Shown piece by piece: positions 6,044 through 43,864 of a stretch of 64,000 nt of DNA. The stretch lies in contig CAYVOI010000001.1 of NCBI GenBank assembly GCA_964453605.1, forward strand, positions 241,627 through 305,626. The letters run 5' to 3'. The position numbers were made by a program, and so were the translations under genes. The notes under the pieces were generated by a model. The model was not told the DNA's origin and searched no databases. It worked only from the letters and a program-made list of their open reading frames with translations. The DNA is from an uncultured Gammaproteobacteria bacterium (GTDB lineage Bacteria > Patescibacteriota > Patescibacteriia > Veblenbacterales > UBA10138). How positions within the stretch are numbered: position 1 is the stretch's first letter; each line of letters opens with the position of its first letter.

Positions 6044-6073
6044 CCCTGAAGTAGAGCATAGCTCACTTCAGGG
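6044..6073 (+). repeat. Conserved hairpin repeat CCCTGAAGT-N12-ACTTCAGGG, copy 1
   Basis: Perfect 9-bp inverted repeat. The same stem recurs at 12085..12114 and, with one mismatch, at 43816..43847. Confidence 0.5.
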
Positions 6074-6126
6074 TAAAATTCGAACCTTACTGCGGTGTAA
6101 TAGTTTTTCGCGACCCCGTACGAGAG

Positions 6127-6213
6127 CGGTGGGGGCGAGATTCGAACTCGCGGTCCGTTTGAGCGGACTCCGGTTTTCAAGACCGGTGCACTAAACCACT
6201 ATGCGACCCCACC
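6127..6213 (-). tRNA. tRNA-Ser (anticodon TGA), class II
   Basis: Minus strand GGTGGGGTCGCATAGTGGTTTAGTGCACCGGTCTTGAAAACCGGAGTCCGCTCAAACGGACCGCGAGTTCGAATCTCGCCCCCACCG. Perfect acceptor stem, 3-bp D-stem, long variable arm, G73 discriminator. Confidence 0.7.
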
Positions 6214-6396
6214 GCTCTTCTACGGGGCAAGCTGTCCGATTAAACCACTCTCGCACCCCTCCCTAGCCAAAAAATTGCTACCCCAGTATAGCCACCAAGG
6301 TCAGGAGTGTCAACGTTACCACTTAGGCATTTATTGACGGTAAACAGAAGATGCTTTACCCTTCATACTACAAAGCCAATACAAAAGGAGTCCGCC

Positions 6397-6585
6397 ATGG
6401 AACAGTCAGCAACATCGACATCCGATAAAGACTGTACCTGTCCAAAGAACTGCGATTGCCAAAATCCGCCGCCGTTTCACTGGGATGGGCAGGATGGTAT
6501 TTATCACATCAGTAATATGTGTCCTATACATAACGAAAACCCCCTCGCGAGTGAGGATTGTCCTGTACATAACAATAACCTCTAA
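6397..6585 (+). CDS. Cysteine/histidine-rich small protein, metallothionein-like
   Basis: 62 aa MEQSATSTSDKDCTCPKNCDCQNPPPFHWDGQDGIYHISNMCPIHNENPLASEDCPVHNNNL. Contains a CxCxxxCxC motif. SD AAAAGGAG lies 7 nt upstream of the ATG. Confidence 0.5.
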   Translation: MEQSATSTSDKDCTCPKNCDCQNPPPFHWDGQDGIYHISNMCPIHNENPLASEDCPVHNNNL

Positions 6586-6640
6586 GAGGGTGATTGCTTT
6601 GAGCCATAACCACCTGGTTCCCCGGGTGGTTTTTCATTTT

Positions 6641-7354
6641 CTACCCCTTAGCTACCGTGAGACCCCAGACTTCATGCGCTCCCGCGGCTTTGAGCGCCCG
6701 GGCACAGGCTTCGAGCGTGGCGCCTGAGGTGTAGACATCGTCTACCACCACAAACGTTTTCCCGTTTACGTTTGCTCCGGGCACTACCGTAAACGCTTCG
6801 CGTACATTTTCGGCACGCTCCTCATTAGTCAATTTATTTTGTGGTTTAGTGTGACGCACCCGCTCAAGTACTCGGACTAGTGGAAGTTTAGCCTGCTCAT
6901 GCACAAAGTGAGCTAAGAGTTCAGCTTGGTTAAAGTTTCGCTGCCGGAGCTTGCGCGCCGTAAGTGGTACGGGCACGAGCTGCCACTCGCTCCGTGGGGT
7001 GCCGTGCCAGGCTGGGGGCAGGTCAAAGGCCTTAAGCGTAGCAGTTAGAATATTGCCTAAGGGGACCGTAAGTTCTTTCAGGCCGTCGTACTTTAGGTTG
7101 TGTATCAGCTCTCGTACCAATGGGTTACCGTAGTACTGGGCTACCCACACGCCGTGTAGGGCTTTGTCAGCCCTGCACTCAGCGCAAAATGCGCCAAGCT
7201 CGCTGGGCTCGCCACAGCTGGGGCAGGTGAGCTGGCGGGGGAAGTGGAGGCTGGCTAGGCAGGCAGTGCAGCAGTAACTACCATAGCGGCCGCAACCCAA
7301 ACAGCGGCGGGGGAACAGCGCGTCTACGAGCCAGTTCCACCAGCCGGTCAGCAT
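6641..7354 (-). CDS. comF: ComF-family competence protein (phosphoribosyltransferase domain)
   Basis: N-terminal double CxxC zinc finger and C-terminal PRTase motif VVVDDVYTSGATL. Confidence 0.8.
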   Translation of the reverse strand: MLTGWWNWLVDALFPRRCLGCGRYGSYCCTACLASLHFPRQLTCPSCGEPSELGAFCAECRADKALHGVWVAQYYGNPLVRELIHNLKYDGLKELTVPLGNILTATLKAFDLPPAWHGTPRSEWQLVPVPLTARKLRQRNFNQAELLAHFVHEQAKLPLVRVLERVRHTKPQNKLTNEERAENVREAFTVVPGANVNGKTFVVVDDVYTSGATLEACARALKAAGAHEVWGLTVAKG

Positions 7355-7363
7355 ACCTCACCC

Positions 7364-9880
7364 TTACTCCAAGGTTATCGTACCGTCCTTAGCCGCTTTG
7401 ATAGTTACCTTGGTTGGCGTTTTTTGGAGGTGGAGCAGTTTGTGGGTTATGGGGTCTTCCACCTGTTCCTGCAGGAAGCGGCGGATGCCGCGAGCACCCT
7501 CGTCTGGCGAAAACGTTTTTTTGGCAATGGCCGCTGCCACCCCACGCCCTAAAGTCACTTCGAGCTTCAGTTTTTGTGCTTTGAGGCGCTGGTTCAAGTC
7601 TGCCACCTGCAGCTTCACAATGTCTTCCAGGTTAGCCTCAGAGAGGGGGTTAAAGATGACTATGCCGTCCAAGCGGTTCAAAAACTCCGGACGGAAGAAC
7701 TTTTTAACCTCGCCCATTAAACGCTCCTTGAGTTCAGCAAAGCTCTCTTGGAATTCGGTTTTACCCTCGCCCCCAGCGCTAAAGCCGAGGCGGGCTTGGT
7801 TTCTGAGCTCTTGCAGCCCGAGGTTAGAGGTCATGAGGATGAGCGAGTTTTTGAAGTTCACCTGCTTCCCAGCCGCGTCGGTTAGGTGCCCATCTTCCAA
7901 AATTTGTAGGAGCAGGTTGAACACATCGGGGTGGGCTTTTTCCAGTTCATCAAACAGCACCACTGAGGCGGGTTTGCGCTTGATGAGGTCAGTGAGCTTG
8001 TTAGAGTCTTTGTAGCCTACGTAGCCAGCGGGCGCGCCGATGAGTTTAGAAATGTTGAACCCTTCGGCAAACTCTGACATGTCGAGGCGTATGAGCGCCG
8101 AGGGGTCACCAAACACCGTCTCGGCTACTGCTTTAGCGAGTTCCGTTTTACCAACGCCTGAAGGCCCTAGGAAAATGAATGAGCCAAGCGGTCGGTTGGG
8201 GTTGCCAAAGCCGAGGCGGCCACGGCGTATGGCCTTGGCCACGTGCGTAATAGCTTCAGCTTGCCCCACCACACGCGTGCTCAAAACGCTCTCCAGCTTT
8301 TGCAGCCGCTCGCGCTCCGGCGCCATGAGCTCGGTCACCGGCACGCCAGTAACCTGGGCTACCACTTGCGCAATTTGCTCTGGGCCAACCGTGCCTAAAC
8401 GTTGCTCCCCGCCGTGGCCCTTGCGCAGGCGCTCCAAATCAGTTTTGACTTTGGCCTCCTCTTCTTTGTAGGCGTTAGCCAGCGGGAAGTTCTCTTCTTT
8501 AATAGCGAGCTCTTTAGCCTCCGTGAGCTGCCGTAAGCGTTCACTGAGCCCACGTTCGGCCGTCAGTTGTTCGCTTGGTGCTTGTGAGGTTTTAAGGTGT
8601 GAGGCCGCTTCGTCCAGCAGGTCTATGGCCTTGTCAGGCAAGAACTTTTCTGGCACGTAGCGCTCGGACAGTCGAACCGCTGCCTCAATCGCCTCGTCGG
8701 TTATGGTAACGTGGTGGAAGTTTTCGTAGCTCGCGCGAACACCTTTTAGTACTTCCATGGTTTCTTCGGGTGTAGGTTCAGCCACCTGCACCACCTGGAA
8801 CCTGCGCTCCAGCGCGGCGTCGGATTCAATGGTCTTTTTGTACTCTTCCTGCGTGGTGGCACCAATGCAGCGGATGAGCCCTTTTGCCAAGGCTGGTTTA
8901 AGTAAGTTAGCCAGATCAAGCGTACCCGGCGCGCCGCCAGCGCCCACAATGGTGTGCACCTCGTCTATAAACAGAATAATTTCTGGGTGAGCCTTGAGTT
9001 CTTCCAGCAGTTGTTTGAGGCGGCCCTCAAACTCACCGCGGTACATGGTGCCTGCCACCATGAGCCCCAGGTCCAGAGCGTAGATTTTTTTGTCGCGGAG
9101 AAAATCAGGCACCGCGCCCTCAGCTATGCGGCGCGCCAACCCTTCCACAATGGCGGTCTTGCCCACCCCGGGGTCGCCGAGGAGCAGGGGATTGTTCTTG
9201 GTGCGCCGTGCCAGGATGTTGATGACCCTGGTGATCTCGCGTTCTCGGCCCACCACCGGGTCCAGCTTAGCGCGTGATTCTTTGGAGGTGAGGTCGGTAG
9301 CAAAAAAGTTTAAAGCTGGCGTGTCACCATCGTCCGCGCGTTCACCTTTGGCCTCGGCCACGGCAAAAGCCTCGGTGAGGTCAGGGAACTTTGAGGTTGA
9401 GCGGAGGACCGAGGTGACGTTAGACTTTAAACTCTTGAGCTCCACGTCGAGCTTGCCCCAGAGTTCTTTCACCTCTGCCTCGTCACTCACCGTGAGCGCG
9501 TAGAGCAGGTGCTCGGTGCCAATGTAGTGGTGCTGGTACTTCCAGGCGGTGAGCACGGAGCGCTCGATAATCTTTTTAACCAAAGGCGACAGGTTGCCAC
9601 CCAAAACTTCCGCCAGCTCGGGGTTACTGTTTACCACTTCAGCCACTTTTTCGACCGTGCGGATAGACTGTGGTGTGGTGCCGAGCTTTTCATGAAGTTT
9701 TAAGGTAGACAGCCCGTGCTTGTCTAGAATCTCTGCTGCCAGGCTGCCGCGTTCGGCGGCCAGCGCGAGCACCAGGTCGGTAACCTCAAGCTCGCTCCGC
9801 CCAGCGGAGAGCGCGCCTCCGCGGGCGCGAGCCAAGATTTTCTGGTAGTGGCTGGTGAATTTTGAGAGTATATCGCTCAT
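7364..9880 (-). CDS. clpC: ATP-dependent Clp protease ATP-binding subunit (ClpC-like AAA+ chaperone)
   Basis: 838 aa. Clp N-domain repeats, two Walker A sites ([18 protein letters not shown]), short middle domain, and an LGF ClpP-docking tripeptide. Confidence 0.85.
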
Positions 9881-9978
9881 AGAGCCTTATAACCTATATA
9901 ACGTTACTGGCCCGGCTTTGGTTCAACAGTAAACGTAACCTTGTATACCTATAGTATACCAGATTCCTGAGGTGCCTA

Positions 9979-10875: not shown

Positions 10876-10921
10876 AGTTTTTCACTTATGCGAGTGGCCA
10901 AGACCACGCGCTAGCGACTAG

Positions 10922-11557: not shown

Positions 11558-11641
11558 GCAGGTTTTGTTCGTTGTATGTAGTGGTGGCGGTTTATTTTAG
11601 CTTGTTTTAGCTGAAATTTAAGGCCTATAAGCGGCTATCCC

Positions 11642-11670
11642 TTGACAAATTACTTAGGCTGCGCTATAGT
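11642..11670 (+). promoter_or_regulatory. Near-consensus sigma70-like promoter (TTGACA-N17-TATAGT)
   Basis: TTGACA 11642-11647 and TATAGT 11665-11670. It faces a roughly 600-nt ORF-poor, hairpin-rich region. Confidence 0.4.
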
Positions 11671-12014
11671 AATCAGTTACTGCAAAACTGCGCAGTAGCA
11701 CCAGGAGCAGCCGAAAATCGGCTGACCAGATGGAAAACCCTTACGGAAAACAAACAAGGAGAGTGCCCTAATGGCCTCGTACCCAACTGGTTTCATCTAG
11801 TTTAACAACCCATCGTCGTTCTTCCCGTCGATCATACTAGTCGAACAGTCAAACAACCAACGCCGGAACGCGATGAAAAAATTTCCCAACGGGTTTACGT
11901 AGCGTATGCGCTACATAGGGGGACATCGACAACTTGTCCCCCACGCGCCTAAGTTCATCTGAGTCTCATGTAAGAAGGTGACTTTAGGGGTGTTCATTAC
12001 CAATGGTTGCTCCG

Positions 12015-12250
12015 CAACCGCCCCGATGACCGTCGGGGTGAGAGCGAAGCTCTCAGTTGTCTCTACTACCCTGGGAGGGGAGAACCCTGAAGTAGGCTTT
12101 CAGCCACTTCAGGGCAAGGGGATATGCTAAGGCCAGAGCCGGTTTACACTGGCTCTAACCGGAGGTATATTCCTGGCACGCTGGCCTTCGGGCTTAAGGC
12201 GAGCCATTCTCCTACAGGGTTGTAGTGACAATTAATTCAAGTACCAAAAT
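12015..12250 (+). ncRNA. Structured RNA leader/ncRNA, paralog copy 1
   Basis: Shares ordered hairpins with 38245..38500: CCCCGA-N6-TCGGGGTGAG, then GAGnGCGnAGCnCTC, a GCC-UUCG-GGC tetraloop hairpin, and an AT-rich tail before a strong SD. Confidence 0.35.
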
Positions 12251-19653: not shown

Positions 19654-19728
19654 CGGGGTGTGGTGTACCGGTAACATGCACCCTTGGGGTGGGTGTGACA
19701 GCGGGTTCGACTCCCGCCACCCCGACCA
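19654..19728 (+). tRNA. tRNA-Pro (anticodon GGG)
   Basis: CGGGGTGTGGTGTACCGGTAACATGCACCCTTGGGGTGGGTGTGACAGCGGGTTCGACTCCCGCCACCCCGACCA. 7-bp acceptor, CACCC/GGGTG anticodon stem with loop TTGGGGT, TTCGACT T-loop, encoded CCA. Confidence 0.8.
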
Positions 19729-19762
19729 TGGATATTTGGAAGACAGCGGGCATTGCCCAGGA

Positions 19763-19800
19763 GGGTGTGACGGTGGGTTCGACTCCCACTACCCCGACTA
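19763..19800 (+). repeat. Partial direct repeat of the tRNA-Pro 3' half (att-like remnant)
   Basis: GGGTGTGACGGTGGGTTCGACTCCCACTACCCCGACTA versus the tRNA GGGTGTGACAGCGGGTTCGACTCCCGCCACCCCGACCA. A third acceptor-end-like copy, CCTCCACCCCGACCA, sits at 19942-19956. Confidence 0.5.
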
Positions 19801-20025
19801 AGCACATTCGTTTAGGAGACAGAGGGGCGTAAAGCCCTCGCGTAAAGCGACGTGGTCGCCACGCGACTTTACGTCGGGGGCCACGCCCTCTAGGAGGTTC
19901 GATTTACCCCGTAGGGATACGAAGTATCTCCTGCGGGGCTCCCTCCACCCCGACCAGAGATCATAGATATGATGAAACCCGACTCGCATCGCAAGCCGGG
20001 TTTCGTTGTTTGAAGTTAGTGCTTT

Positions 20026-20797: not shown

Positions 20798-20856
20798 AGG
20801 TATGGTAGTATTACTTACGTCCCACGTAGTCTAGCACCTTTGCTAACTTAGTCAAG

Positions 20857-21009
20857 TATGCCCGGTATGACAACTTTAGCTACGCTCACCATTCTGGCCC
20901 GATTTACCGACAAAGCATTAGTTTTCTATGTCAAGGTTATTGTTTAGTGCTAACCCAAACCACTTGGCTCGCGTAAGCGTGCCAGGCTAAAGTTGCTCTA
21001 CCGGGTATG
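20857..21009. mobile_element. TATG-flanked miniature inverted-repeat element, copy G
   Basis: TATGCCCGGTATGACAACTTTAGCTACGCTC...GCTAAAGTTGCTCTACCGGGTATG. Same terminal architecture as the six copies in the r-protein operon. The terminal ATG is the M50 peptidase start. Confidence 0.6.
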
Positions 21010-21654
21010 GACTTCACCCTCCCCCTACTGTTTTTCTTCTTCATCATTATTCCGTCCTCCATTTTGCACGAGTACGCGCACGGTTGGGTGGCGGATAAGC
21101 TTGGCGACCCTACCCCGAGGCTCAGTGGCCGGCTGACGCTGAACCCGTTGCCGCACATAGACCCTATGGGTACCCTGCTTTTGCCCTTAGGTCTGTTCCT
21201 CTTGACTCGCGGCAGCTTTCTCTTCGCCTACGCTAAGCCCGTGCCGTTTAACCCGCTGGCTCTCCGATGGCAGCGATGGGGGAGCGCGGCGGTGGCCATG
21301 GCCGGCCCGCTTACTAATTTGGCCGTGGCGTTTATTTGCGGCACGTTGCTCCAGGTGGCCCCCTTAAGTAACTGGAGCGTGCTTCTAGTCATAATAACCT
21401 ACGCCAACATTATGCTGGCGGTGTTTAACCTAGTGCCTATTCCGCCGCTCGACGGCTCTAAGATTCTCTACACCCTGCTGCCGGACCGCTACTACGCGGC
21501 CAAGGTGTGGCTGGAGCGGTACGGGTACTTTATACTTATCTTTTTTATCTTCTTCCTTTTTTCCGCTGTGCTTTCGCCTGTTATCCACTGGTTGTTCCAG
21601 TTGGCCGCTGGCCGCGTAGGTGAGCTGATACTGTTCCAAGGCCTGGGGGCTTGA
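21007..21654 (+). CDS. Site-2 protease family zinc metalloprotease (M50)
   Basis: HEYAHGWVA HExxH motif in a TM helix and the FNLVPIPPLDGSKIL LDG motif. Confidence 0.7.
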   Translation: MDFTLPLLFFFFIIIPSSILHEYAHGWVADKLGDPTPRLSGRLTLNPLPHIDPMGTLLLPLGLFLLTRGSFLFAYAKPVPFNPLALRWQRWGSAAVAMAGPLTNLAVAFICGTLLQVAPLSNWSVLLVIITYANIMLAVFNLVPIPPLDGSKILYTLLPDRYYAAKVWLERYGYFILIFFIFFLFSAVLSPVIHWLFQLAAGRVGELILFQGLGA

Positions 21655-27097: not shown

Positions 27098-27311
27098 TAG
27101 AGTTACAACGTTCTTGAAATCCTTCTAAAACTTCCCCTACGTGTAGCCTTAGCACTGCGACGGTGGCCCTAAAGACCACACCTACAGCTGCCAAAGCCCA
27201 CACCTACGGAGTTCCTCTCACTTCTCACCACCTTACCCCGACATTCTTGTATGACAACCGTTTACCGGAGTTTTGGAGTTGTGGGTAGGTAAACGGTTTT
27301 TGTTTAGAGCT

Positions 27312-27457
27312 TATGCCCAGCATGACAACTTCGCTAGTGCTCGATTCAACCACCATGTATAACAACCTTATGTTTCGTATAAAGTCTTTATTCACTAACC
27401 ATTCGCTTACTTCTCCTCGCACTGAGGTGGTTGAGCGAAGTTGCTCTGCTGGGTATG
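27312..27457. mobile_element. TATG-flanked miniature inverted-repeat element, copy A
   Basis: TATGCCCAGCATGACAACTTCGCTAGTGCTCG...GAGCGAAGTTGCTCTGCTGGGTATG. Terminal inverted repeat CCCAGCA/TGCTGGG, flanking direct TATG. Its 3' ATG is the rplC start. A terminator lies just upstream at about 27258-27308. Confidence 0.6.
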
Positions 27458-28063
27458 TCTAAGTTCATCCTCGCCACCAAAGTCAGCATGTCACGTACCT
27501 TCAAAGCCGATGGTACGTCTGTGGCTGTGACGACGCTTAAGGCTGAGCCTATGGTGGTGACCCAGGTGAAAACTGCAGACAAAGACGGCTACCAAGCCGT
27601 GCAGGTGGGGGCTGGCTCTCGGCGCAAGGTTTCAAAGAGCGTGGCTGGTCACGTGAAACCTACAGGCAAAACGTTCCGTCGCCTGAAAGAGTTCCGGATG
27701 ATAGGAGAGTTCCAGGTTGGCCAGAGTGTCGACCTTACGCAATTTGCACCAGGGGATAAGGTGAACGTAGTTGGTGTTTCCAAAGGTAAGGGGTTCCAGG
27801 GTGTGGTGAGGCGTCACGGGTTCCACGGTCACCCGCCAACCCACGGTCACAAAGATCAGGAGCGCAGGTCAGGCTCTATTGGCGCTGGTGGTTTACAACA
27901 CGTGCGCAAGGGTATGCGCATGGCCGGCCGCATGGGTGGTGATCGCATTACCGTGCACAACCTGGAGGTAGTAGCCGTAGCGCCCGAGAAGCACGAGCTC
28001 ACCTTAAAAGGTGCCGTGCCAGGGGCCAGGCACGGTTTGCTTATGGTAACTAGCGTAAAGTAG
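27455..28063 (+). CDS. rplC: 50S ribosomal protein L3
   Basis: MSKFILATKVSMSRTFKADG...; the ORF-track N-terminus MSEVALLG is derived from the inserted element. Confidence 0.9.
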   Translation: MSKFILATKVSMSRTFKADGTSVAVTTLKAEPMVVTQVKTADKDGYQAVQVGAGSRRKVSKSVAGHVKPTGKTFRRLKEFRMIGEFQVGQSVDLTQFAPGDKVNVVGVSKGKGFQGVVRRHGFHGHPPTHGHKDQERRSGSIGAGGLQHVRKGMRMAGRMGGDRITVHNLEVVAVAPEKHELTLKGAVPGARHGLLMVTSVK

Positions 28064-29047: not shown

Positions 29048-29051
29048 GCCG

Positions 29052-29197
29052 TATGCCCAGCATGACAACTTCGCTAGCGCTCCTACCAACCACTATGTGC
29101 CAGAACCTTATGCTTCGTACACAGACCTTATTCACTAACCACCAACTTACTCCCACTCGCGCTTGGGTGGTTGAGCGAAGTTGCTCTGCCGGGTATG
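29052..29197. mobile_element. TATG-flanked miniature inverted-repeat element, copy B
   Basis: 146 nt, TATGCCCAGCATGACAACTTCGCTAGCGCTCC...GAGCGAAGTTGCTCTGCCGGGTATG. Identical to copy E over its full length. Its 3' ATG is the rplB start. Confidence 0.65.
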
Positions 29198-30034
29198 CCA
29201 GTTAAACTCTACCGACCAACAACCCCAGGCCGCCGGCACGCCGGCATTCTGACCGCCGAGCTTACCAACAAGCGGCCGGAGCGTTCTCTGGTACGCGGGG
29301 GCAGGTCTAAGGCCGGGCGCAATTTCCAGGGTAAAATAACCACCCGTCATCGTGGTGGTGGTGTGAAGCGCTTGCTCAGAATGCTCGACAGCCGCCGCGA
29401 CAAGTACGGCGTGACTGCACGCGTCGTAGCCCTTGAGTACGACCCCGGCCGAACAGCCAACTTGGCGCTCCTCAGTTACCGCGATGGCGAAAAGCGCTAC
29501 ATTTTGGCGCCGGAAGGTTTGCGCGTGGGCCAGGAAGTGGTTTCGGCCAAAACAGCGGTGGAGGCTAAAGTCGGCAACCGCTTGCCCTTTAAGTTTATTC
29601 CCGCCGGGTTACAAGTGCACGACATTGAACTGACGCCTGGTCAGGGTGGCGCCATGGTGCGCTCGGCAGGAAGTTGGGCTACGTTTATGTCTATCGAAGG
29701 TGATCAGGCCAGGTTGAAGCTCCCCTCGGGTGAAGTACGCAGCGTGTCGGTGGATTGTCTCGCGACCATTGGGCAAGTGGGGAACATTGATCATGCCAAC
29801 GTGCGCCTGGGCAAAGCTGGGCGCCGTCGCCACCTCGGCTTCCGTCCGTCAGTTCGTGGTAAAGCTATGAACCCGGTGGACCACCCACATGGTGGCGGTG
29901 AAGGGCACAACCCCATTGGTATGAAGCACCCCAAGACACCCTGGGGTAAACCCGCACTCGGCGTGCCGACACGCAAGCGAACCAAGGCTTCCAACCGTTT
30001 CATTATTTCTCGCCGCCCCAAGCGGACTAAGTAA
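29195..30034 (+). CDS. rplB: 50S ribosomal protein L2
   Basis: [17 protein letters not shown]... and HPHGGGEG motif. Confidence 0.95.
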
Positions 30035-32110: not shown

Positions 32111-32114
32111 CTCC

Positions 32115-32261
32115 TATGCCCAGCATGACAACTTTGCTAGAGCTCGCGGCCACGGCTAACACTACCACCCCTATGTACTCTACTGCTCATACAATTACCA
32201 TTAACGACTCGCAGCCAAGCTCGCTCCATTGGGGCCGAGCAAAGTTGCCAGCTCAGGTATG
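32115..32261. mobile_element. TATG-flanked miniature inverted-repeat element, copy C (more diverged)
   Basis: TATGCCCAGCATGACAACTTTGCTAGAGCTCGCGG...GAGCAAAGTTGCCAGCTCAGGTATG. Its 3' ATG is the rpsQ start. Confidence 0.55.
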
Positions 32262-32510
32262 ACTACCAAACCCATTAAACGTCAGCTCGAAGGTGAAGTA
32301 GTGTCCGACCGCGCCAACAAAACACGCGTGGTGTTGGTTTCTCGTGTGCAGGTGCACCCCAAGTACGGCAAACGGTTCCGCACCTCAGAGCGCTACCAGG
32401 CACACGACGAACAGAACACCTACAAGGTGGGGGACAGGGTAGTGATTGAGGAAACCCGGCCGTACTCCAGGACCAAGCGGTTCCGCATTATTTCAAAGGT
32501 TAAGGCGTAA
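32259..32510 (+). CDS. rpsQ: 30S ribosomal protein S17
   Basis: MTTKPIKRQLEGEVVSDRANKTRVV... Confidence 0.9.
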   Translation: MTTKPIKRQLEGEVVSDRANKTRVVLVSRVQVHPKYGKRFRTSERYQAHDEQNTYKVGDRVVIEETRPYSRTKRFRIISKVKA

Positions 32511-34023: not shown

Positions 34024-34410
34024 ATGACAGACCCCATTAGCGACATGCTCACACGTATCAGGAACGCTATCCTCGTGAAAAAGCCCGAGGTGGTGGTGCC
34101 GTACTCCAGGCTCAAAGCTAACTTGGCACAGATTTTGGTGCACGAAGGGTACCTCGAGTCGGTGAGCGAGGTAGAGGCTCCGTTCCGCTCCCTGAAGCTC
34201 AAACTCTCCTACCAAGCTGGTCAGTCAGCCATCCGGAATTTGAAGCGCGTTTCCACCCCAGGCCGCAGAACGTACGCCAAGGCGCCTGAGCTGCCACGCG
34301 TGCTCTCTGGACTTGGTATTGCCATTATTTCTACCTCCCAAGGCCTCATGACGAACCGCGATGCCCGAGCCAAGAAGCTTGGTGGTGAGGTTATTTGCGA
34401 AATCTACTAG
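34024..34410 (+). CDS. rpsH: 30S ribosomal protein S8
   Basis: MTDPISDMLTRIRNA... Confidence 0.9.
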   Translation: MTDPISDMLTRIRNAILVKKPEVVVPYSRLKANLAQILVHEGYLESVSEVEAPFRSLKLKLSYQAGQSAIRNLKRVSTPGRRTYAKAPELPRVLSGLGIAIISTSQGLMTNRDARAKKLGGEVICEIY

Positions 34411-34557
34411 TATGCCCGGCATGACAACTTCGCTGGAGCTCGCGGCCGCAGTATTCAGTAACACTACTATGTACAATACTTCTGTCATTCGTATTACCAT
34501 TAACACGCAGCCTGGCTCGCTCCCAAGCGGACGAGCGAAGTTGCTAGCCCAGGTATG
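34411..34557. mobile_element. TATG-flanked miniature inverted-repeat element, copy D
   Basis: TATGCCCGGCATGACAACTTCGCTGGAGCTCGCGG...GAGCGAAGTTGCTAGCCCAGGTATG. Its 3' ATG is the rplF start. Confidence 0.6.
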
Positions 34558-35109
34558 TCACGCTTAGGTAAGCTCCCCATCACCATACCCTCCGGCGTTC
34601 AGGTAACGCCTAAAGAAACCGAGGTCGCCTTCAAAGGCCCTAAGGGTGAGTTTGTGCAAGCTCTGCCGCCACAGGTTAAGGTTGCCCTGGAAGGCACCAC
34701 CTTGACCGTGCTCGCTCCAGCCTCAGATTCAAGCGAGGCCAGGGCGCTGTGGGGCCTGGCTCGGCAGCTCCTCCAGAATGCGGTTACCGGTGTGGCTCAA
34801 GGCTTTACCAAAAAGCTTGAGCTCTCGGGTATTGGGTTTAAGGCTGCAGTAGAGGGTAAAGACCTCGTGCTTAACCTTGGCTTTTCTCACCCGGTCCGCT
34901 TTGCGGTGCCCCAGGGCGTTGCTATCACCGTGGAAAAGAACAACCTCATCACCGTTACCGGCGCTTCTAAGCAGCAGGTGGGGCAGGTAGCCGCAGAAAT
35001 TCGTTCACTCAAGAAGCCAGAGCCCTACAAGGGTAAGGGCATTAAGTACGCCGATGAGACCATTCGCCGCAAGGCTGGTAAGGTCGTTAAGGCCGCTGGC
35101 GCAAAGTAA
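34555..35109 (+). CDS. rplF: 50S ribosomal protein L6
   Basis: MSRLGKLPITIPSGVQV... Confidence 0.9.
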   Translation: MSRLGKLPITIPSGVQVTPKETEVAFKGPKGEFVQALPPQVKVALEGTTLTVLAPASDSSEARALWGLARQLLQNAVTGVAQGFTKKLELSGIGFKAAVEGKDLVLNLGFSHPVRFAVPQGVAITVEKNNLITVTGASKQQVGQVAAEIRSLKKPEPYKGKGIKYADETIRRKAGKVVKAAGAK

Positions 35110-35114
35110 CCACC

Positions 35115-35260
35115 TATGCCCAGCATGACAACTTCGCTAGCGCTCCTACCAACCACTATGTGCCAGAACCTTATGCTTCGTACACAGACCTTATTCACTA
35201 ACCACCAACTTACTCCCACTCGCGCTTGGGTGGTTGAGCGAAGTTGCTCTGCCGGGTATG
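35115..35260. mobile_element. TATG-flanked miniature inverted-repeat element, copy E (identical to copy B)
   Basis: 146/146 identity with 29052..29197. Its 3' ATG is the rplR start. Confidence 0.65.
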
Positions 35261-35614
35261 CCTAAGTCTATTCTCAAACCACGTACCATTCGCCACCGCC
35301 GTCTGCGTTCGCACTTGGCGGGCACAGCAAAGCGGCCACGCCTAGCTGTTTGGCGGAGCCTCCGGCGCATTACTGCCCAGCTCATTAACGACGACACTCG
35401 CCGTACGCTCGCTGCGGCTTCAAGCCAAGAGCTCACGGGCGCGGCCAAGAAGGCTAAGCCGGTGGAGCAAGCTATGGCAGTAGGGAAGATGATCGCCGAG
35501 CGCGCTAAGGCCAAAGGTGTCACAACGGTGGTGTTTGACCGCGGTGGCCAGGCGTACCACGGCCGCGTAAAGGCGCTAGCTCAGGGTGCGCGTGAGGGCG
35601 GTTTACAGTTCTAA
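35258..35614 (+). CDS. rplR: 50S ribosomal protein L18
   Basis: [17 protein letters not shown]... L18 family. Confidence 0.9.
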
Positions 35615-36171: not shown

Positions 36172-36174
36172 CCC

Positions 36175-36324
36175 TATGCCCGGCATGACAACTTCGCTGG
36201 AGCTCGCTTCGGCCACGGCAGGTAAAGAAATTCTTATGCTCTATAAGTTAAACTTCAGTACTACCATTAATATGCAGCTCCGCTCGCTCCCTAGTGGCCG
36301 AGCGAAGTTGCTCTGCTAGGTATG
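36175..36324. mobile_element. TATG-flanked miniature inverted-repeat element, copy F
   Basis: TATGCCCGGCATGACAACTTCGCTGGAGCTCGC...GAGCGAAGTTGCTCTGCTAGGTATG. Its 3' ATG is the rplO start. Confidence 0.6.
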
Positions 36325-36807
36325 TCACTTACCCTCCAAAACCTCAAACCCGCTCACGGGTCGCAACGCAACCGCAAGCGCTTGGGCCGAGGTAACGCCT
36401 CAGGCCATGGTGCCTACTCTACCCGCGGTATCAAGGGTCAGCGCGCTCGCCAAGGCGGGCGTAAGGGCTTAACCCAGCTGGGGGCCAAGCACTTTATTTC
36501 CCACCTGCCCAAAGTTCGCGGGTTCCAGAGCTTTAAGGCTAAACCCCAGGTGGTAAACATTGCCGACCTTACCAAGGTTACCCCCGATAGCACTGTGGAC
36601 GCCCGCGTGTTGGTAAGTTTAGGCTTGATTCGCGACCACCGTGTGGCGGTAAAACTCATTGGCAGTGCTAAGTTGCCCAAGCTCACCATTACCGTACAGG
36701 CAGCTACCGAGGGTGTGCGCGCAGCCGTGGCGGCCGCTGGTGGCACGCTGGAGCTTAAACCCCTTGCCGCCACCACTAAGACTGCTACAGTTACTTCAGC
36801 GGAGTAG
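36322..36807 (+). CDS. rplO: 50S ribosomal protein L15
   Basis: MSLTLQNLKPAHGSQRNRKRLGRG... Confidence 0.9.
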   Translation: MSLTLQNLKPAHGSQRNRKRLGRGNASGHGAYSTRGIKGQRARQGGRKGLTQLGAKHFISHLPKVRGFQSFKAKPQVVNIADLTKVTPDSTVDARVLVSLGLIRDHRVAVKLIGSAKLPKLTITVQAATEGVRAAVAAAGGTLELKPLAATTKTATVTSAE

Positions 36808-38107: not shown

Positions 38108-38127
38108 GTTGTTGCCATTTTCGACCA

Positions 38128-38162: not shown

Positions 38163-38244
38163 ATTGTTCTACAGTCTGTTCCACAACCCTTGACTTTTTG
38201 GCGGTTTTGGACTATGTTTAATAGTTCTTTAATAATGGCTGCTT

Positions 38245-38500
38245 CGTCAGCCACCCCGACAGTCATCGGGGTGAGCGCGGAGCGCTCAATAGCTCATTCG
38301 CACCCTCCTGCAGGGAGCCCCAAACTACGTAACGAGTTCGGGGTGGAGGAACAGGCGGTACGTAACTGCTTAGGGTTGGAGTAGTCTGGCCTTGGGCAGA
38401 TGGCGTACTGCTGGTACACCAGCCTTCGGGCATAAGGTGTGCCAGTTCACCTTCAGGATGGTGCGGGTGAGTAATTAACTATTGAAATAAAATAAACAGA
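38245..38500 (+). ncRNA. Structured RNA leader/ncRNA, paralog copy 2
   Basis: Promoter TTGACT-N17-TATGTT at 38190-38218. Ordered hairpins CCCCGA-N6-TCGGGGTGAG and GAGCGCGGAGCGCTC, a GCC-UUCG-GGC hairpin, and an AT-rich tail shared with 12015..12250. Confidence 0.35.
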
Positions 38501-38513
38501 AAGGAAAAACAAA

Positions 38514-38681: not shown

Positions 38682-38777
38682 TAATTTGTGCCTAAGCGGG
38701 TGAATAGATTTAAAGAAGGTCACAGAACATCGTGGCCTTCTTTTTATTTTCCAGTCAAGTAAGGTAAACTGTACTGT

Positions 38778-39410: not shown

Positions 39411-39415
39411 CAGCG

Positions 39416-39731
39416 TATGCCCAGTAACAAAACTTCGCATGTTCTTCTATACCTACCTACTTCAGAGCGCTAAAGACGGTAAGCACTATATCGGCTTTAC
39501 AAAAGATTTACGCGGTCGGATTGAAGAACACAATGCAGGTAAGAGTTTTGCAACGAGACCTCGGGTGCCATTAGTCCTTGTTTACTATGAAGCGTGTCGA
39601 AGTGAACAAGATGCCAAACAGCGGGAGAAGTACCTCAAAACTACAGCCGGCCGTAGGTTCCTGGCCAAGCGTCTTCGACGTTTTCGATTGCTGAGTTTGG
39701 CATCTTGGTGAAGTTATTGTTACTGGGTATG
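39416..39731. mobile_element. 316-bp TATG-flanked inverted-repeat element carrying a GIY-YIG nuclease gene
   Basis: TATG-CCCAGTAACAAAACTTCGC...GGTGAAGTTATTGTTACTGGG-TATG. The 11-bp perfect TIR CCCAGTAACAA/TTGTTACTGGG and subterminal AACTTCGC/GAAGTT blocks are homologous to the ends of the 146-bp elements. The terminal ATG is the map start. Confidence 0.55.
39439..39711 (+). CDS. GIY-YIG nuclease family protein (YhbQ/UPF0213-like)
   Basis: MFFYTYLLQSAKDGKHYIGFTKDLRGRIEEHNAGKSFATRPRVPLVLVYYEA..REKYLK shows the YxY...YIG...R..EH.N core of the GIY-YIG fold. 90 aa. Confidence 0.8.
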   Translation: MFFYTYLLQSAKDGKHYIGFTKDLRGRIEEHNAGKSFATRPRVPLVLVYYEACRSEQDAKQREKYLKTTAGRRFLAKRLRRFRLLSLASW

Positions 39732-40496
39732 TCGAGTTTAGTAAAAACTAAAGCCGAAGTTGCCACCATGCGTGCGGGGGGTAAAATTTTAGCCCAAGTT
39801 TTAGCCGAAGTTGCCGCGGTGGTACAGCCTGGCGTTACCACGGGCGAGCTCAATAAGCTGGCGGAGACAAGGCTTCGTGCCCTGGGCGCTACGCCATCAT
39901 TTTTAAACTACGGTGCTGAAGCAGGTAACCCATTCCCGGCTACGTTGTGCACTTCAGTTAACAACGCGGTGGTACACGGTATACCCTCTGACTACCAGCG
40001 TTTAGTGGAAGGGGATATTGTAGGTCTTGATATAGGCTGCTGGTACGATGGGCTCTGCACCGATATGGCCGTCACTGTACCGGTTGGTAAGGTATCAGCT
40101 GAAGCACAGAAGCTTATAGCAGTTACCAAAGAAGCGCTTAAACTTGGCTTAGCACAGGTAAAAGCTGGCGCTAAGTCCGGGGACGTTGGTAGTGCTGTAC
40201 AGGCTTACGTTGAGAAAAATGGGTTTTCAGTAGTTAGGCAGCTGGTGGGGCATGGGGTTGGGCGTGCGGTGCATGAGGAGCCCCAGGTGCCTAACTTTGG
40301 CCGCAAGGGAACTGGCACTGTCCTTGAAGCAGGTATGACGATTGCCGTGGAGCCTATGGTAAATCAAGGCGAGGCAGAGGTGGAAACCCTGGACGACGGT
40401 TGGACCGTGGTAACCTCTGACGGGAGCTTTTCAGCCCACTTCGAGCACACCGTGCTGGTGACCCCTAAGGGTTGTGATATTTTGACTGTGGTATGA
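39729..40496 (+). CDS. map: Methionine aminopeptidase type I
   Basis: Pita-bread fold with metal ligands (D..D..H..E..E); operon position after adk. Confidence 0.9.
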   Translation: MSSLVKTKAEVATMRAGGKILAQVLAEVAAVVQPGVTTGELNKLAETRLRALGATPSFLNYGAEAGNPFPATLCTSVNNAVVHGIPSDYQRLVEGDIVGLDIGCWYDGLCTDMAVTVPVGKVSAEAQKLIAVTKEALKLGLAQVKAGAKSGDVGSAVQAYVEKNGFSVVRQLVGHGVGRAVHEEPQVPNFGRKGTGTVLEAGMTIAVEPMVNQGEAEVETLDDGWTVVTSDGSFSAHFEHTVLVTPKGCDILTVV

Positions 40497-40885
40497 AAAT
40501 TTTGAGTATTGATTACGGTGAGCGGCGGGTGGGGTTGGCGGTGGGGGATACCGAAACCAAGTTGGCGTTGCCTTATGGCACTCTGGAACGGCTGAGCGAC
40601 GAGACGCTCATAGTGCAGCTGGAACAGATTGTGGCTGAAGAGGGTATTGAGCGTATTGTAGTTGGTGAACCGTTGGGGACTGACGGTCGTAGCACTGCTC
40701 AAACTGAAAGCGCTCGCGAGTTCGCGCTAGGGCTCAAAGCGCAGGTGGCAGTGCCTGTAGAGTTGTTTGACGAGCGCTTTACCAGTCAGCGCGCCGACGC
40801 GGCCGGAGGCTCGGGCGGTAAGGTGCGCGGGCGCGATGAACTGGCGGCTATGTTCTTGCTGCAGGATTATCTGGAGCGTAACTAA
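40493..40885 (+). CDS. ruvX: Holliday-junction resolvase-like protein YqgF/RuvX
   Basis: MKILSIDYGERRVGLAVGD... RNase H-like YqgF signature. Confidence 0.85.
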   Translation: MKILSIDYGERRVGLAVGDTETKLALPYGTLERLSDETLIVQLEQIVAEEGIERIVVGEPLGTDGRSTAQTESAREFALGLKAQVAVPVELFDERFTSQRADAAGGSGGKVRGRDELAAMFLLQDYLERN

Positions 40886-40888
40886 CCT

Positions 40889-41920
40889 ATGGCGCTGTCG
40901 GTTGCAGCCATAACGTTAGCCTTTGTACTCACGGCGGAGCTCACGTTCTACGTACGGCACTGGGCCTGGCGCCGTAACATTGTTGATGAACCTAACCTGC
41001 CGCGGAAAGTCCACACTCAAGCTACTGCGCTCCTCGGGGGCGTGTCTATTTACGTAAGCGTCAGCCTGGTCGCCTTGACGTTCGCCCTTACCACCCATGC
41101 GATTATTGGTAAAGACATAAGCTGGGCGCAGCTCCTGGCAGTGACTTTCGGGGGTGGGCTTATTATGTACGGCGGCTGGCGCGACGATGCCTTTGGCTTG
41201 TCGGCAGGGAGGCAGCTCGTGTGGCCCATCTTGGCGGCCCTGGTCGCGGTGGCAGCTGGCATTGGCCCTAAGGTGTTGAGTAGCCCGTGGGGTGGGTTTG
41301 TGCACCTTGGCGCAGTGGCCTCAGCCGCCCTAGCGTTCGCCTGGCTCATGGGTATGATGTACACCACCAAGCTCCTTGATGGGTTGGACGGCCTGGCTAC
41401 CGGCATTAGCGCCATCGGTAGCTTTATTATTTTTGGGCTAACGCAGTTCACACCGTTCTACCAACCATCAGTTGGTTTGCTGGCGCTAGCACTTGGTGGG
41501 GCTGCTTTAGGGTTTTTAGTCTGGAACTGGCACCCTGCTAAAATTTTCCTTGGAGAAGGAGGAAGCCTATACTTAGGTTTCATGCTCGGCGTGCTCTCCA
41601 TAATATCCGGCGCTAAAATAGCCACCGCGCTCTTGGTTATGGGTATTCCCATCCTTGACGTGGCTTGGGTCATAGTACGCCGGTTGTTTTGGGATAAAAA
41701 GAGTTTGGTGGAAGGCGACAGGAAACACCTGCACTACCGCCTGCTCGACGTTGGTCTTTCTCACCAACAGGCCGTTTTACTCCTCTATGCCTTGGCGACA
41801 ACTTTTGGGGTCGCCTCATTATTTTTAGGTACCACAGGTAAGGTCGTAGCTCTTGGGTTGTTATTGGGTGTGATGTTTACGCTAGGCGTGGTTACCGTTT
41901 CTCGTTTGCAAAAAAAATAG
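40889..41920 (+). CDS. Polyprenyl-phosphate N-acetylhexosamine-1-phosphate transferase (MraY/WecA family)
   Basis: KLLDGLDGLATG and NWHPAKIFLGEGGSLYLGF motifs; 10-11 TM segments. Confidence 0.75.
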   Translation: MALSVAAITLAFVLTAELTFYVRHWAWRRNIVDEPNLPRKVHTQATALLGGVSIYVSVSLVALTFALTTHAIIGKDISWAQLLAVTFGGGLIMYGGWRDDAFGLSAGRQLVWPILAALVAVAAGIGPKVLSSPWGGFVHLGAVASAALAFAWLMGMMYTTKLLDGLDGLATGISAIGSFIIFGLTQFTPFYQPSVGLLALALGGAALGFLVWNWHPAKIFLGEGGSLYLGFMLGVLSIISGAKIATALLVMGIPILDVAWVIVRRLFWDKKSLVEGDRKHLHYRLLDVGLSHQQAVLLLYALATTFGVASLFLGTTGKVVALGLLLGVMFTLGVVTVSRLQKK

Positions 41921-41972
41921 GCCCCAACGTGTTTCCATTGGAGCCTAGTACTTCTACCTCACCATCGCACCA

Positions 41973-42440
41973 TCAGGCGCGCTTGCGTTGCTTGTTCTGG
42001 AGCTGATTGACCCGCTGGACGCCAATCTCGTACCCCTGGTCGAGGATCGTGTCCTTCGCGCCGATCTCCCTCAGCTTCCGCCGGATTTCTTCGAGGTCAA
42101 GGGCCCCGGCGTTGCGCGCGACCGCATCGGCCACCTGCTCCCGGAAGAAATCGGTCATCTTGACCCCGGTGGGTTTGAGTTTCACGAGTTTGTGGACAAG
42201 AGTGTCGAAGTGGATCCAGTCGTACTTGATGATCGCGTCGCTCATGGCCTCGAGGGTCTCCTTGACGCATCCGTTAGTGTCCTGTAGGTGCAGGCAGTTA
42301 TCGTGGATTGGGTCAGGCGTCTGGTCGTCCGCCACCCGGTGGCCACCAGGGGTAGTTACCTTGATCGGGGTTCTTGACCCGTTGCGGCTCTGGGCGTTCA
42401 ACCGTAGGATGAGGTCGGGAAAAACGTGCAGTTCTTTCAT
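41973..42440 (-). CDS. Hypothetical protein
   Basis: 155-aa ORF with no recognisable motif. Confidence 0.4.
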   Translation of the reverse strand: MKELHVFPDLILRLNAQSRNGSRTPIKVTTPGGHRVADDQTPDPIHDNCLHLQDTNGCVKETLEAMSDAIIKYDWIHFDTLVHKLVKLKPTGVKMTDFFREQVADAVARNAGALDLEEIRRKLREIGAKDTILDQGYEIGVQRVNQLQNKQRKRA

Positions 42441-42661
42441 GGCATCTCCTGTGTATGGTGGATGGGGTTATGTTAATTAGTTATGTTTGTTACTTAAAAA
42501 ACTTATTTTCAAATTCTTTTCACTATATACTAAATAAATAAGGGTGTCAAGAAATGAACTGCAAAGGTTCCGAAGGGGCCACGGTTGACCCCAGGATTGA
42601 CAGGATTACCTGTATTAAGTACTATAATTGGGCAGTGTTTCAGAGTTTATTCATGAATCTT

Positions 42662-42973
42662 ATGTCTACTATTGCAGTAGTAAAAACCGGCGGGAAGCAG
42701 TACGTGGTCCGCGAGGGCGATGTGCTGAAGGTGGAAAAGCTCGCCGCAGCTGATGGTACAATAGTCTTTACTGATGTATTGCTCAAGGCCGCAGCTGATG
42801 GTAGTTCAGTAGAGCTCGGGCAACCGCGTGTTAAGGCTACCGTAACCGGCAGCGTCACCAAGCAGGGCCGTGCCAAGAAGGTTTTGGTGGTGCACTACAA
42901 GGCCAAGGTGAGGTACCACAAGAAGTACGGCCACCGTCAGCCATTCACCGAGGTTAAGATCGATAAACTATAA
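42662..42973 (+). CDS. rplU: 50S ribosomal protein L21
   Basis: MSTIAVVKTGGKQYVVREGDVLKVEKL... The ORF-track start at 42554 is an upstream artefact. Confidence 0.85.
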   Translation: MSTIAVVKTGGKQYVVREGDVLKVEKLAAADGTIVFTDVLLKAAADGSSVELGQPRVKATVTGSVTKQGRAKKVLVVHYKAKVRYHKKYGHRQPFTEVKIDKL

Positions 42974-43013
42974 AAGCCTTAGGAGGGCGCTTACCATTAA
43001 GCTGCAAACGCTT

Positions 43014-43097
43014 ATGACATGTACTAAGTGTGGTCAAGAGGGCTGCGCTTGCGACACGAGCGGCGAGTGCAACTGCAACGAGAGCTGCCCTTGTTAG
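43014..43097 (+). CDS. 27-aa cysteine-rich microprotein, metallothionein-like
   Basis: MTCTKCGQEGCACDTSGECNCNESCPC with 9 Cys in 27 residues and a CxCxxxCxC motif. Sits between rplU and a strong terminator. No SD. Confidence 0.4.
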   Translation: MTCTKCGQEGCACDTSGECNCNESCPC

Positions 43098-43106
43098 TTT
43101 GGTCCT

Positions 43107-43143
43107 AGAAAAAACAGTCCGCCCACAGGGGCGGACTGTTTTT
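43107..43143. terminator. Bidirectional rho-independent terminator
   Basis: AAAAAA-CAGTCCGCCC-acag-GGGCGGACTG-TTTTT, between the plus-strand rplU unit and minus-strand recR. Confidence 0.65.
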
Positions 43144-43152
43144 ATGTTCCTG

Positions 43153-43761
43153 TTACACTTCCCGCCGGCCGGTGAGAGCGCTCTCCAAAGTTACCTCGTC
43201 AGCGTACTCCAGGTCAGCCCCTACCGGCAGGCCTTGGGCCAGGCGGGTGACCTTAATGCCCAACGGTTTTATCAGCTGCGCCAGGTAGAGTGCCGTGGTT
43301 TCGCCATCTAGGTTGGGGTTAAGGGCTAGTATAACTTCCTTAACCCCGTTAGCTTTGAGTCGCTGAGTCAAGGCTGGCACCGTCAGCTTGTCAGGTGTCA
43401 CCCCCTCCAGTGGGCTCACTAAGCCCCCGAGCACATGGTAGCGCCCGTGGAAGGCGCCGGTTTTCTCTAAGACCGGTATGTTCTGGCTCTCGGCCACTAC
43501 GCAAATAGTCGTTTTGTCCCGCCTTTGGTCAGTGCAAATAGGGCAGGGGTTTTGGTCCGTAAAGCGGTGACACTCTGAGCACGTTGTGACCTGCTCTTGT
43601 ACGTGCCGTAAGCTCTGGGCCATAGCTTCAAGCTCCTCTTTGGGCTGTTTCAAGAGGTAGTACACTAGGCGTTCAGCGGTTTTAGGGCCAATGCCAGGTA
43701 GCTTGGTGAACTCTTGCAGCAGCTGCTCAAGTGCGCGCGGGGTAGGGGACATGGAAAACAA
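43153..43761 (-). CDS. recR: Recombination protein RecR
   Basis: C4 zinc finger CSECHRFTDQNPCPIC plus Toprim domain; 202 aa. Confidence 0.9.
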   Translation of the reverse strand: MFSMSPTPRALEQLLQEFTKLPGIGPKTAERLVYYLLKQPKEELEAMAQSLRHVQEQVTTCSECHRFTDQNPCPICTDQRRDKTTICVVAESQNIPVLEKTGAFHGRYHVLGGLVSPLEGVTPDKLTVPALTQRLKANGVKEVILALNPNLDGETTALYLAQLIKPLGIKVTRLAQGLPVGADLEYADEVTLESALTGRREV

Positions 43762-43864
43762 AATTCAAAGCAGGTTAGTGTCTTAAGTATATCGGAAATA
43801 TTGGTCATTGCGAAGCCCTGTAGTTGTGCGACGCACATACTTCAGGGCGTGCTATACTAACTCT

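Follow-up and report, generated by a model that had tools for sequence, protein, structure and literature searches.

Ssn nucleases are single-domain GIY-YIG proteins of ~94 aa that bind and cut single-stranded DNA (ssDNA) only, at hairpin repeats known as NTS/SRM (Chenal et al., Nat Commun 2025; PMC11893778). In most cases the ssn gene is bordered by these repeats, which are almost never intragenic and are read on one strand; SsnA requires the sequence of the stem, tolerates any loop and acts on one strand only (PMC11893778). Here we describe a hairpin that occurs three times in a 64-kb stretch of a patescibacterial genome (GenBank contig CAYVOI010000001.1, positions 241,627 to 305,626), called the window below. 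The best explanation that we can offer is that all three belong to a palindromic repeat of the Ssn/SRM kind, short and strand-oriented, and that one of them has become part of a leader RNA; we would put the probability of this reading at about 0.45. It is suggested by how the copies are conserved, from their presence and absence in relatives, from their indifference to the direction of transcription, and from an association that recurs across phyla. The copies are as follows.

6044–6073, + strand: hairpin copy 1, CCCTGAAGT-A-GAGC-ATA-GCTC-ACTTCAGGG, with perfect 9 + 9 arms and the unpaired A on the + strand.
12085–12114, + strand: hairpin copy 2, CCCTGAAGT-A-GGCT-TTC-AGCC-ACTTCAGGG, again with perfect 9 + 9 arms and the unpaired A on the + strand.
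43816–43847, − strand: hairpin copy 3, which reads CCCTGAAGT-A-TGTGC-GTC-GCACA-ACTACAGGG on the − strand and has one A.A mismatch.

A preliminary description, made from the letters of the window, had placed three hairpins in non-coding DNA at these coordinates, two of them perfect and one with a single mismatch, and all of this was confirmed. Its 12-nt loop, on the other hand, is not a loop. In every copy the central 12–14 bases form one unpaired A straight after CCCTGAAGT, an inner helix of 4–5 bp and a loop of 3 nt. The arms agree at 18/18, 18/18 and 17/18 positions and no copy has lost the unpaired A, whereas the 11–13 inner bases are almost wholly different from copy to copy and yet form 4–5 pairs in each (GAGC/GCTC in copy 1, GGCU/AGCC in copy 2 and UGUGC/GCACA in copy 3). 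Intact arms around a replaced but still paired interior fit selection on arm sequence and on pairing, and are not what neutral decay would leave of recent duplicates. With palindromic arms, the unpaired base is the sole guide to orientation. By this mark copies 1 and 2, which have the A on the + strand, lie alike, and copy 3, which has it on the − strand, is inverted, so the single orientation reported earlier for all copies has to be given up.

The hairpin is real and non-random, and a chance triplet is excluded. The pattern CCCTGAAGT-N8-20-ACTTCAGGG has two exact matches in the window as against none in 100 dinucleotide-preserving shuffles, and each of the five exact CCCTGAAGT 9-mers in the 64 kb falls within one of the three hairpins; copies of CCCTGAAGT with one mismatch barely exceed chance there (25 observed, 14.8 expected). 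Predicted RNA folds of each hairpin reach −20 to −22 kcal/mol (z from −4.7 to −6.8), and predicted DNA folds, on both strands of each, −12 to −13 kcal/mol. When the window was searched with Rfam 15, tRNAs alone reached the gathering score, so that no curated family covers the hairpin, and a literature search on its sequence gave only papers on GFP short hairpin RNAs.

The comparison with NTS/SRM holds in several respects. Both are short inverted repeats (20–50 nt) that form hairpins, lie almost always between genes and take direction from an asymmetric feature, here the unpaired A. The stem is conserved and the loop is free, which matches the requirement of SsnA for the stem and not the loop, and the window encodes a single-domain GIY-YIG protein of ~90–100 aa (39439–39711). 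The two differ in that the asymmetry is an unpaired base in the stem of our hairpin and lies in the conserved flanks of SRM; moreover, the nucleases associated with the hairpin form a separate group, copy number is low, and the window hairpins are not beside a GIY-YIG gene.

REP sequences, with their BIME arrays and RAYT proteins, are the second comparison. They too are intergenic imperfect palindromes found in both orientations, their conserved stems contain mismatches or bulges, and a nuclease is believed to recognize them in the form of ssDNA hairpins. The GTAG of REP is, however, absent from the 5′ foot of our hairpin, where the preceding bases are GTGG, AGAA and CACG (the last on the − strand), and it is found only within the stem, where copies 1 and 2 have their bulge. 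No Y1 transposase (RAYT) domain was found in ten neighbouring open reading frames (ORFs) scanned, no inverted pairs of the BIME type occur in the 64-kb window, and the three copies seen in these 64 kb compare with tens to hundreds per genome for REP. A third comparison, with the uptake sequences of Neisseria (DUS) and the Pasteurellaceae (USS), rests on conserved arms of 9–10 nt, inverted pairs and a variable interior. Uptake sequences occur about once per kb, singly and also within genes, whereas here every exact 9-mer is part of a hairpin and the window has no single copies; this candidate was rejected. In sum the hairpin behaves like the nuclease-associated palindromic repeats (SRM, REP) but fails both sequence definitions.

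Copy 3 is situated in the spacer that separates the divergent promoters of recR and flavodoxin, with its end 17 nt from the flavodoxin ATG at 43865 (a distance of 20 nt had been given before), and the recR promoter (TTCGCA-17-TATACT, 43814–43786) abuts it. Four relatives were compared at this locus (L203, L206, L207 and L208; flavodoxin 62–76% identical). All four keep the recR −35 and −10 and the flavodoxin −10 (TGnTATACT), all four lack copy 3, and their spacers are 20–30 nt shorter. Since the promoters are kept where the hairpin is absent, copy 3 is lineage-specific and, on this reading, stands outside both main transcription units. The flavodoxin gene deserves a remark of its own: in the window, L203, L206 and L207 the extended −10 (TGnTATACT; 43850–43867 in the window) sits exactly 6 nt before the ATG with no Shine-Dalgarno sequence, which implies a leaderless mRNA in this lineage. 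In L208 the −10 is 18 nt upstream and is followed by a leader with a GGAG Shine-Dalgarno sequence.

Copy 1 is 52 nt downstream of a tRNA-Ser gene (6126–6213, − strand), within an operon whose order on the − strand is promoter (6313–6285), tRNA-Ser, hairpin, orphan 104-aa ORF, tRNA-Ser, truncated HAD ORF, tRNA-Ser and terminator (5078–5064). The A form of this copy is on the strand opposite to the − strand of the operon, and hairpin copies lie in both orientations relative to local transcription. Its immediate surroundings contain one further feature.

6028–6086, − strand: remnant of a tRNA-Ser 3′ end that brackets copy 1, GGTTCGAAT ... hairpin ... CCCTCCGCCA, identical to the 3′ end of the tRNA-Ser at 5609–5698.

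That copy 1 is bracketed in this way is how we read the sequence. A GGAGGGG block had been noted 5′ of copies 1 and 2 and is indeed there, but what it stands for is ambiguous, as it is one strand of a leader-RNA helix at copy 2 and belongs to the putative tRNA-Ser remnant (TGGCGGAGGG) at copy 1. A search of 5.8 billion proteins gave no homolog of the orphan ORF, and for this reason the orthologous site of copy 1 is not comparable between genomes; copy 1 lies within a lineage-specific tRNA-Ser cluster. The cluster itself (5092–6313, − strand) has its three tRNA-Ser genes spaced ~517 bp apart in one operon, with the truncated HAD-like ORF and the orphan membrane ORF between them, and the tRNA-Ser at 6126–6213 is enclosed by a 14-bp leader/trailer stem (6114–6137 / 6204–6227). 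This spacing and this stem suggest duplication or rearrangement at tRNA-Ser. Elsewhere in the window, tRNA-Pro (19654–19728) is followed by two partial repeats of its own 3′ half (19760–19808, 82% identity, and 19939–19961), which may be scars of integration or duplication.

Copy 2 differs from the others in belonging to a structured RNA, for which the window holds the following features.

11995–12245, + strand: structured 5′ leader RNA (~250 nt) with copy 2 as a part of it, ahead of a 60-aa ORF and prfB.
38227–38485, + strand: paralog of this leader RNA (covariance model, 290 bits), lying between secY and adk with a 56-aa membrane ORF downstream.
38318–38343, + strand: diverged equivalent of the hairpin within the paralog, CCCCAAACT-A-CG-TAA-CG-AGTTCGGGG, with the unpaired A retained and two pairs changed on both sides.

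The two leaders were found as repeat families D18 and D20 of the window and then aligned. In their consensus fold 11 of the 60 pairs are altered on both sides; copy 2 is one helix of the fold (paired, alignment columns 92–121), and the paralog supplies a fourth, diverged version of the hairpin (CCCCAAACU-A-CG..CG-AGUUCGGGG). A promoter (TTGACA-17-TATAGT, 11642–11670) lies upstream of copy 2. The covariance model built from the pair found a full-length homolog in a relative (L126:8076–8311, 39 bits), where the helix is CCCTAAAGT-A-GTTCCGA-TAGA-TCGGGAC-ACTTCAGGG-CAAG and the same GGGAGGGGAGA stands before it. Another relative (L125) has the syntenic ortholog, in the order lemA, element, small ORF, prfB; its leader has kept the promoter along with the closing helices and the GCCUUCGGGC hairpin, and an unrelated domain occupies the position of copy 2. 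Rfam searched at E ≤ 10 around copy 2 and the paralog gave nothing meaningful. As a sigma-70-like promoter lies upstream and a small ORF with a Shine-Dalgarno sequence downstream in all versions, these are a family of structured 5′ leaders in which the hairpin is a peripheral, exchangeable helix.

The family as a whole (~110–260 nt) comprises the two window leaders, L126:8076–8311, L125:3890–4210 and L203:9056–9167. Its features are three small hairpins, closing helices in which GGAGGGGAGAA pairs to UUCUCC, and the GCCUUCGGGC hairpin. Each member is upstream of a small membrane, secreted or unknown ORF and none has an Rfam match; the family may be an unknown cis-regulatory RNA.

Hairpins with the same arms were collected by a scan of one representative genome per species, which gave at least 120 loci with at least 124 hairpins, a set selected for these arms. 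Those listed come from many phyla, mostly Bacteroidota and Patescibacteria. At this genome scale 9-bp-stem hairpins of any given sequence are expected by chance. Their detailed structure, by contrast, is beyond what chance predicts. Among the matches listed, 31% (39 of 124) share the unpaired A that follows CCCTGAAGT, or on the other strand the T in front of ACTTCAGGG, together with an inner stem of at least 3 bp, and other single-base bulges number at most 8. Control 9-bp hairpins carry an A/T bulge at a rate of 1.6% (10/644 in the same loci and 7/427 in 1 Mb of relatives).

The bulged copies are associated with stable-RNA genes. Ten of the 39 among the matches listed are within 150 nt of a tRNA or 5S gene, to which a misclassified copy in L038 can be added, and the same is true of one of 77 listed copies in the classes 'none' (61) and 'direct' (16). 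In many cases (for example in L044, L099, L114 and L013) the hairpin extends into the terminal bases of the mature tRNA, at its start or at its end. In one Patescibacteria genome the final GG of the hairpin provides the first bases of tRNA-Ile, tRNA-Lys and tRNA-Val, and variants of the arms with compensating changes (CCGTGAAGT, CCCCGAAGT, CCATGAAGT) stand at other tRNA 5′ and 3′ ends. In Bacteroidota the hairpin comes 8–10 nt after 5S rRNA and a U run follows. Downstream of 5S and tRNA genes both orientations of the hairpin are found (L002 versus L038; L012 versus L013), and Rfam gave nothing meaningful around the hairpin loci of other phyla.

A related arrangement was seen at two loci of one Patescibacteria genome (L044 1600–3000 and L114 100–800), where three-segment elements flank eight of nine tRNA genes on at least one side, the exception being tRNA-Gly (L044:3907). 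The elements read TCAGGG-CTTG-CCCTGAAGT...ACTTCAGGG at the tRNA 5′ end and, in mirror form, CCATGAAGT...ACTTCATGG-CAAG-CCATG at the 3′ end. Their outer bases co-vary with the terminal bases of the tRNA, so that the middle segment can pair in two ways.

The fetched loci were also searched for GIY-YIG genes, using the window ORF 39439–39711 and a small profile as queries. Four GIY-YIG ORFs were found in the at least 120 pattern loci (L013, L044, L075, L019), all of them 41–222 nt from a hairpin; the chance of such closeness is roughly 10% for each ORF if placed randomly in an 8-kb locus. PF01541 is the sole domain match of all four. In these four unrelated genomes, though not in the window, the hairpin resembles SRM in its place beside single-domain GIY-YIG genes of ~90–100 aa, and like SRM it occurs in many phyla, including symbionts and naturally competent bacteria. 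In L075 and L019 hairpin-carrying repeats are on both sides of the gene, as in the published repeat-ssn-repeat layout. In a neighbour-joining tree the nucleases by the hairpins of L044, L013 and L075, which represent two Patescibacteria and one member of the Bacteroidia, group together. The nearest solved structures of the relevant GIY-YIG proteins are those of the UPF0213 proteins 1ZG2 and 1YWL. On a viral contig (L228), duplicated 3′ parts of tRNA-Ser enclose a related GIY-YIG gene, and a trailer hairpin there pairs with the tRNA 3′ end. Other genes of the same subfamily (L181 2890–3230, L174 5690–6200) are flanked by a different inverted repeat, CCCCGTTAGAGA / TCTCTAACGGGG, which ends at the ATG of the next gene, and this suggests several nuclease/repeat pairs in Patescibacteria.

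If the hairpin is a repeat of the Ssn/SRM kind, it would be recognized as ssDNA. In DNA made single-stranded by replication, by transformation (the incoming strand) or in open transcription bubbles, each strand would fold into the 9-bp stem, the unpaired base and the short inner helix. A protein would read the arms by their conserved sequence, along with the unpaired A or, on the opposite strand, T, and these would make the site directional, and for the inner helix pairing would be the sole requirement. The putative partner is a small single-domain GIY-YIG nuclease, which would bind the hairpin and nick nearby. Its action would account for a mobile repeat, for the positions at gene boundaries and for the marking of recombination-prone DNA. 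Copy 2 would have been built into the leader RNA, doubling as an RNA helix, and copies 1 and 3 would be lineage-specific additions. The occurrence of both orientations, and of copy 3 outside two conserved transcription units, is natural for an element that acts in DNA. A narrower proposal is that the bulged CCCTGAAGT-A hairpin is the cognate ssDNA site of single-domain GIY-YIG nucleases of a distinct clade, one that spreads horizontally and settles exactly at the ends of stable-RNA genes (tRNA 5′ and 3′, 5S 3′) in Patescibacteria, Bacteroidota and other phyla, one copy having been co-opted here as a leader-RNA helix. We regard this as possible, although we would lean against it.

A number of observations weigh against the Ssn/SRM reading. 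The SRM motif (HGTCWYN(0-2)YYVSBRHN(0-5)WNVSBRGN(0-2)RNCYNB), which was verified by hand to match the NTS consensus, has no match in the window (shuffle mean 0.6) and none in ten GIY-YIG loci. There are just three hairpins in the 64-kb window, part of an 876-kb genome, no target-site duplication is visible at them, and ~1 Mb of related genomes gave a single further copy, inside the homologous leader of L126. The window has no GIY-YIG gene of the hairpin-associated clade; its own GIY-YIG protein is of the same superfamily but a different clade, is encoded 4.1 kb from the nearest hairpin copy and has a different repeat in its flanks. Membership of the relevant proteins in the Ssn clade (cd10448) is that of candidates, and the phylum-level counts from the species-genome scan are not unbiased. 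Finally, the pair-preserving changes in copy 2 and its paralog are found within an RNA, and an RNA-level role at copy 2 is real.

The suggestion in the preliminary description of a structural or protein-binding element, REP-like or a small mobile hairpin, accordingly survives in part. The conserved arms and unpaired A, the inner helix that varies but pairs, the relatives without copy 3 and the GIY-YIG neighbours in other phyla are in its favour, but the REP/RAYT definition does not apply, and copy 2 is an integral helix of a leader and not a free-standing hairpin. That description would have seen a chance triplet in a lack of further copies and of conservation in relatives; the outcome is split, in that close relatives mostly lack the hairpin while identical hairpins are widespread elsewhere.

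The main rival is that the hairpin is an RNA-level module, either a structural helix or the site of an RNA-binding protein or ribonuclease, that marks or protects the ends of stable RNAs and leaders. The paired changes of the leader fold (11/60) speak for it, with the helix and unpaired A kept in both the paralog and L126, as do the transcribed tRNA-Ser operon around copy 1 and, in other phyla, the hairpins that abut mature tRNA ends or trail 5S with a U run. A weak promoter-like site on the − strand (43887–43860) could even put copy 3 in the recR 5′ untranslated region. Yet copy 3 is upstream of both conserved promoters, and the transcribed strand would bulge A at copy 2 but U at copy 1. This, and the two orientations downstream of 5S and tRNA genes in other genomes, mean that one RNA-binding protein reading the bulge cannot explain all copies. 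No Rfam family matches, and the link to a GIY-YIG DNA nuclease is left unexplained. We consider this module unlikely as the full account of the hairpin, though it is the strongest of the alternatives.

The remaining three explanations fit fewer observations. Copies 1 and 3 might be degraded fragments of the leader, or patches of gene conversion from it, with no function of their own. Two leader paralogs do lie within 26 kb of each other in the window, a TGG.GGAGGGG stretch is common to copy 1 and the region upstream of copy 2, and partial leader modules stand alone in relatives (L203, L125). At copy 1, however, the leader covariance model matches the 30-nt hairpin and not its flanks, and the flanks of copy 3 show no similarity. 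Relics should also decay evenly, whereas the arms are intact and the interior is wholly different but paired, and identical hairpins in other phyla would have no explanation. An origin as relics seems improbable to us.

An operator in duplex DNA, at which a dimeric transcription factor binds two inverted 9-bp half-sites in the manner of CIRCE or HAIR and regulates the neighbours, would be at home at copy 3, which covers the flavodoxin −35 region and abuts the recR −35, and palindromic half-sites would function in either orientation. But the half-sites are spaced variably (12 versus 14 nt), copies 1 and 2 are not at promoters, and relatives with the same promoters lack the site. All three spacers are self-complementary, which a duplex site does not need and which has a rough chance probability of about 1e-6. 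Such an operator is very improbable. Least credible of all are terminators or attenuators that share a stem by happenstance: many Bacteroidota copies do lie between A and T runs like bidirectional terminators, including those after 5S rRNA, but no T run follows any window copy on either strand (the bases downstream are TAAAATTC, CAAGGGGA and CGTGCTAT), a terminator scan calls none, copy 3 is between divergent gene starts and copy 2 is in the middle of a leader.

Several other candidates were dropped. Replication direction does not set the orientation, as cumulative GC skew climbs steadily across the window and leaves the inversion of copy 3 unexplained. A phage origin is unsupported, as 2.9 million viral contigs gave only three matches. 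A concealed small ORF that would end at the UGA of the arm, or a frameshift site of the prfB type (Shine-Dalgarno plus CCC-UGA), fails for want of a start codon, because the paralog at 38 kb has no stop and copy 1 is antisense; L126 has UAA where the copy 2 arm has UGA. A TnTACT −10-like promoter made by the bulged T for leaderless tRNAs lacks the A at −11. KOPS, sigma-54, K-turn, hammerhead and 16S A-site mimicry were considered, and on inspection none fits a perfectly paired stem.

The GIY-YIG gene of the window belongs to an element of its own.

39416–39731, + strand: GIY-YIG element, distinct from the hairpin, whose 90-aa single-domain ORF (39439–39711) is bordered by the inverted repeats CCCAGTAACAAAACTTC / GAAGTTATTGTTACTGGG and by a TATG at either side.

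The ORF matches PF01541 alone (E 9e-16). The element is inserted at the start codon of map, such that the second flanking ATG is the map start. Members of this clade are 60–80% identical across Patescibacteria and have ends of the form ATG-CCCAGTAAC ... GAAGTT..GTTACTGGG-TATG, and homologs (L213, L221, L224/L225, L227) are likewise placed exactly at the start codon of the gene that follows, be it that of an ABC transporter, mshE/T2SSE or a NERD protein. The element looks like a mobile element that targets start codons.

The window also has seven elements of ~150–160 nt that carry no gene and lie between ribosomal-protein and neighbouring genes, at about 20855–21010, 27310–27465, 29050–29205, 32113–32270, 34409–34565, 35113–35268 and 36173–36335. 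They start with TATGCCC(A/G)GCATGACAACTTCGCT and finish with AGCGAAGTTGCTCTGCCGGGTATG, the final ATG being the start codon of the next gene, and their ends pair into a long stem. Two of the copies (29052–29199 and 35115–35262) show 100% identity across 148 nt. All seven have the appearance of miniature derivatives of the GIY-YIG element. MITE and foldback elements are built on the same principle, and our hairpin, with two conserved inverted ends and a short variable interior, is like them to that extent. It differs in that its arms (CCCTGAAGT) are unlike the ends of the GIY-YIG element (CCCAGTAAC), and neither a target duplication nor an autonomous partner has been identified for it.

Even if our preferred reading is wrong, what is described here is a conserved bulged hairpin near stable-RNA genes that is in no database. 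If the hairpin is a repeat of the Ssn/SRM kind, the recently described Ssn-type nuclease/hairpin pairs would gain a recognition site that the published motif does not cover, found in bacteria of a candidate phylum and in Bacteroidota; were it also the cognate site of the neighbouring nucleases, this would be a new nuclease/repeat pair, and an extrahelical base a new type of directional signal. Pairs of this kind are of interest as programmable cutters of single-strand DNA. In naturally competent symbionts with reduced genomes, such pairs may control which incoming DNA recombines. Some duplications and rearrangements of tRNA genes could have their cause in a hairpin placed at tRNA and 5S ends, and copy 2 would be an example of a selfish repeat turned into part of a structured RNA.

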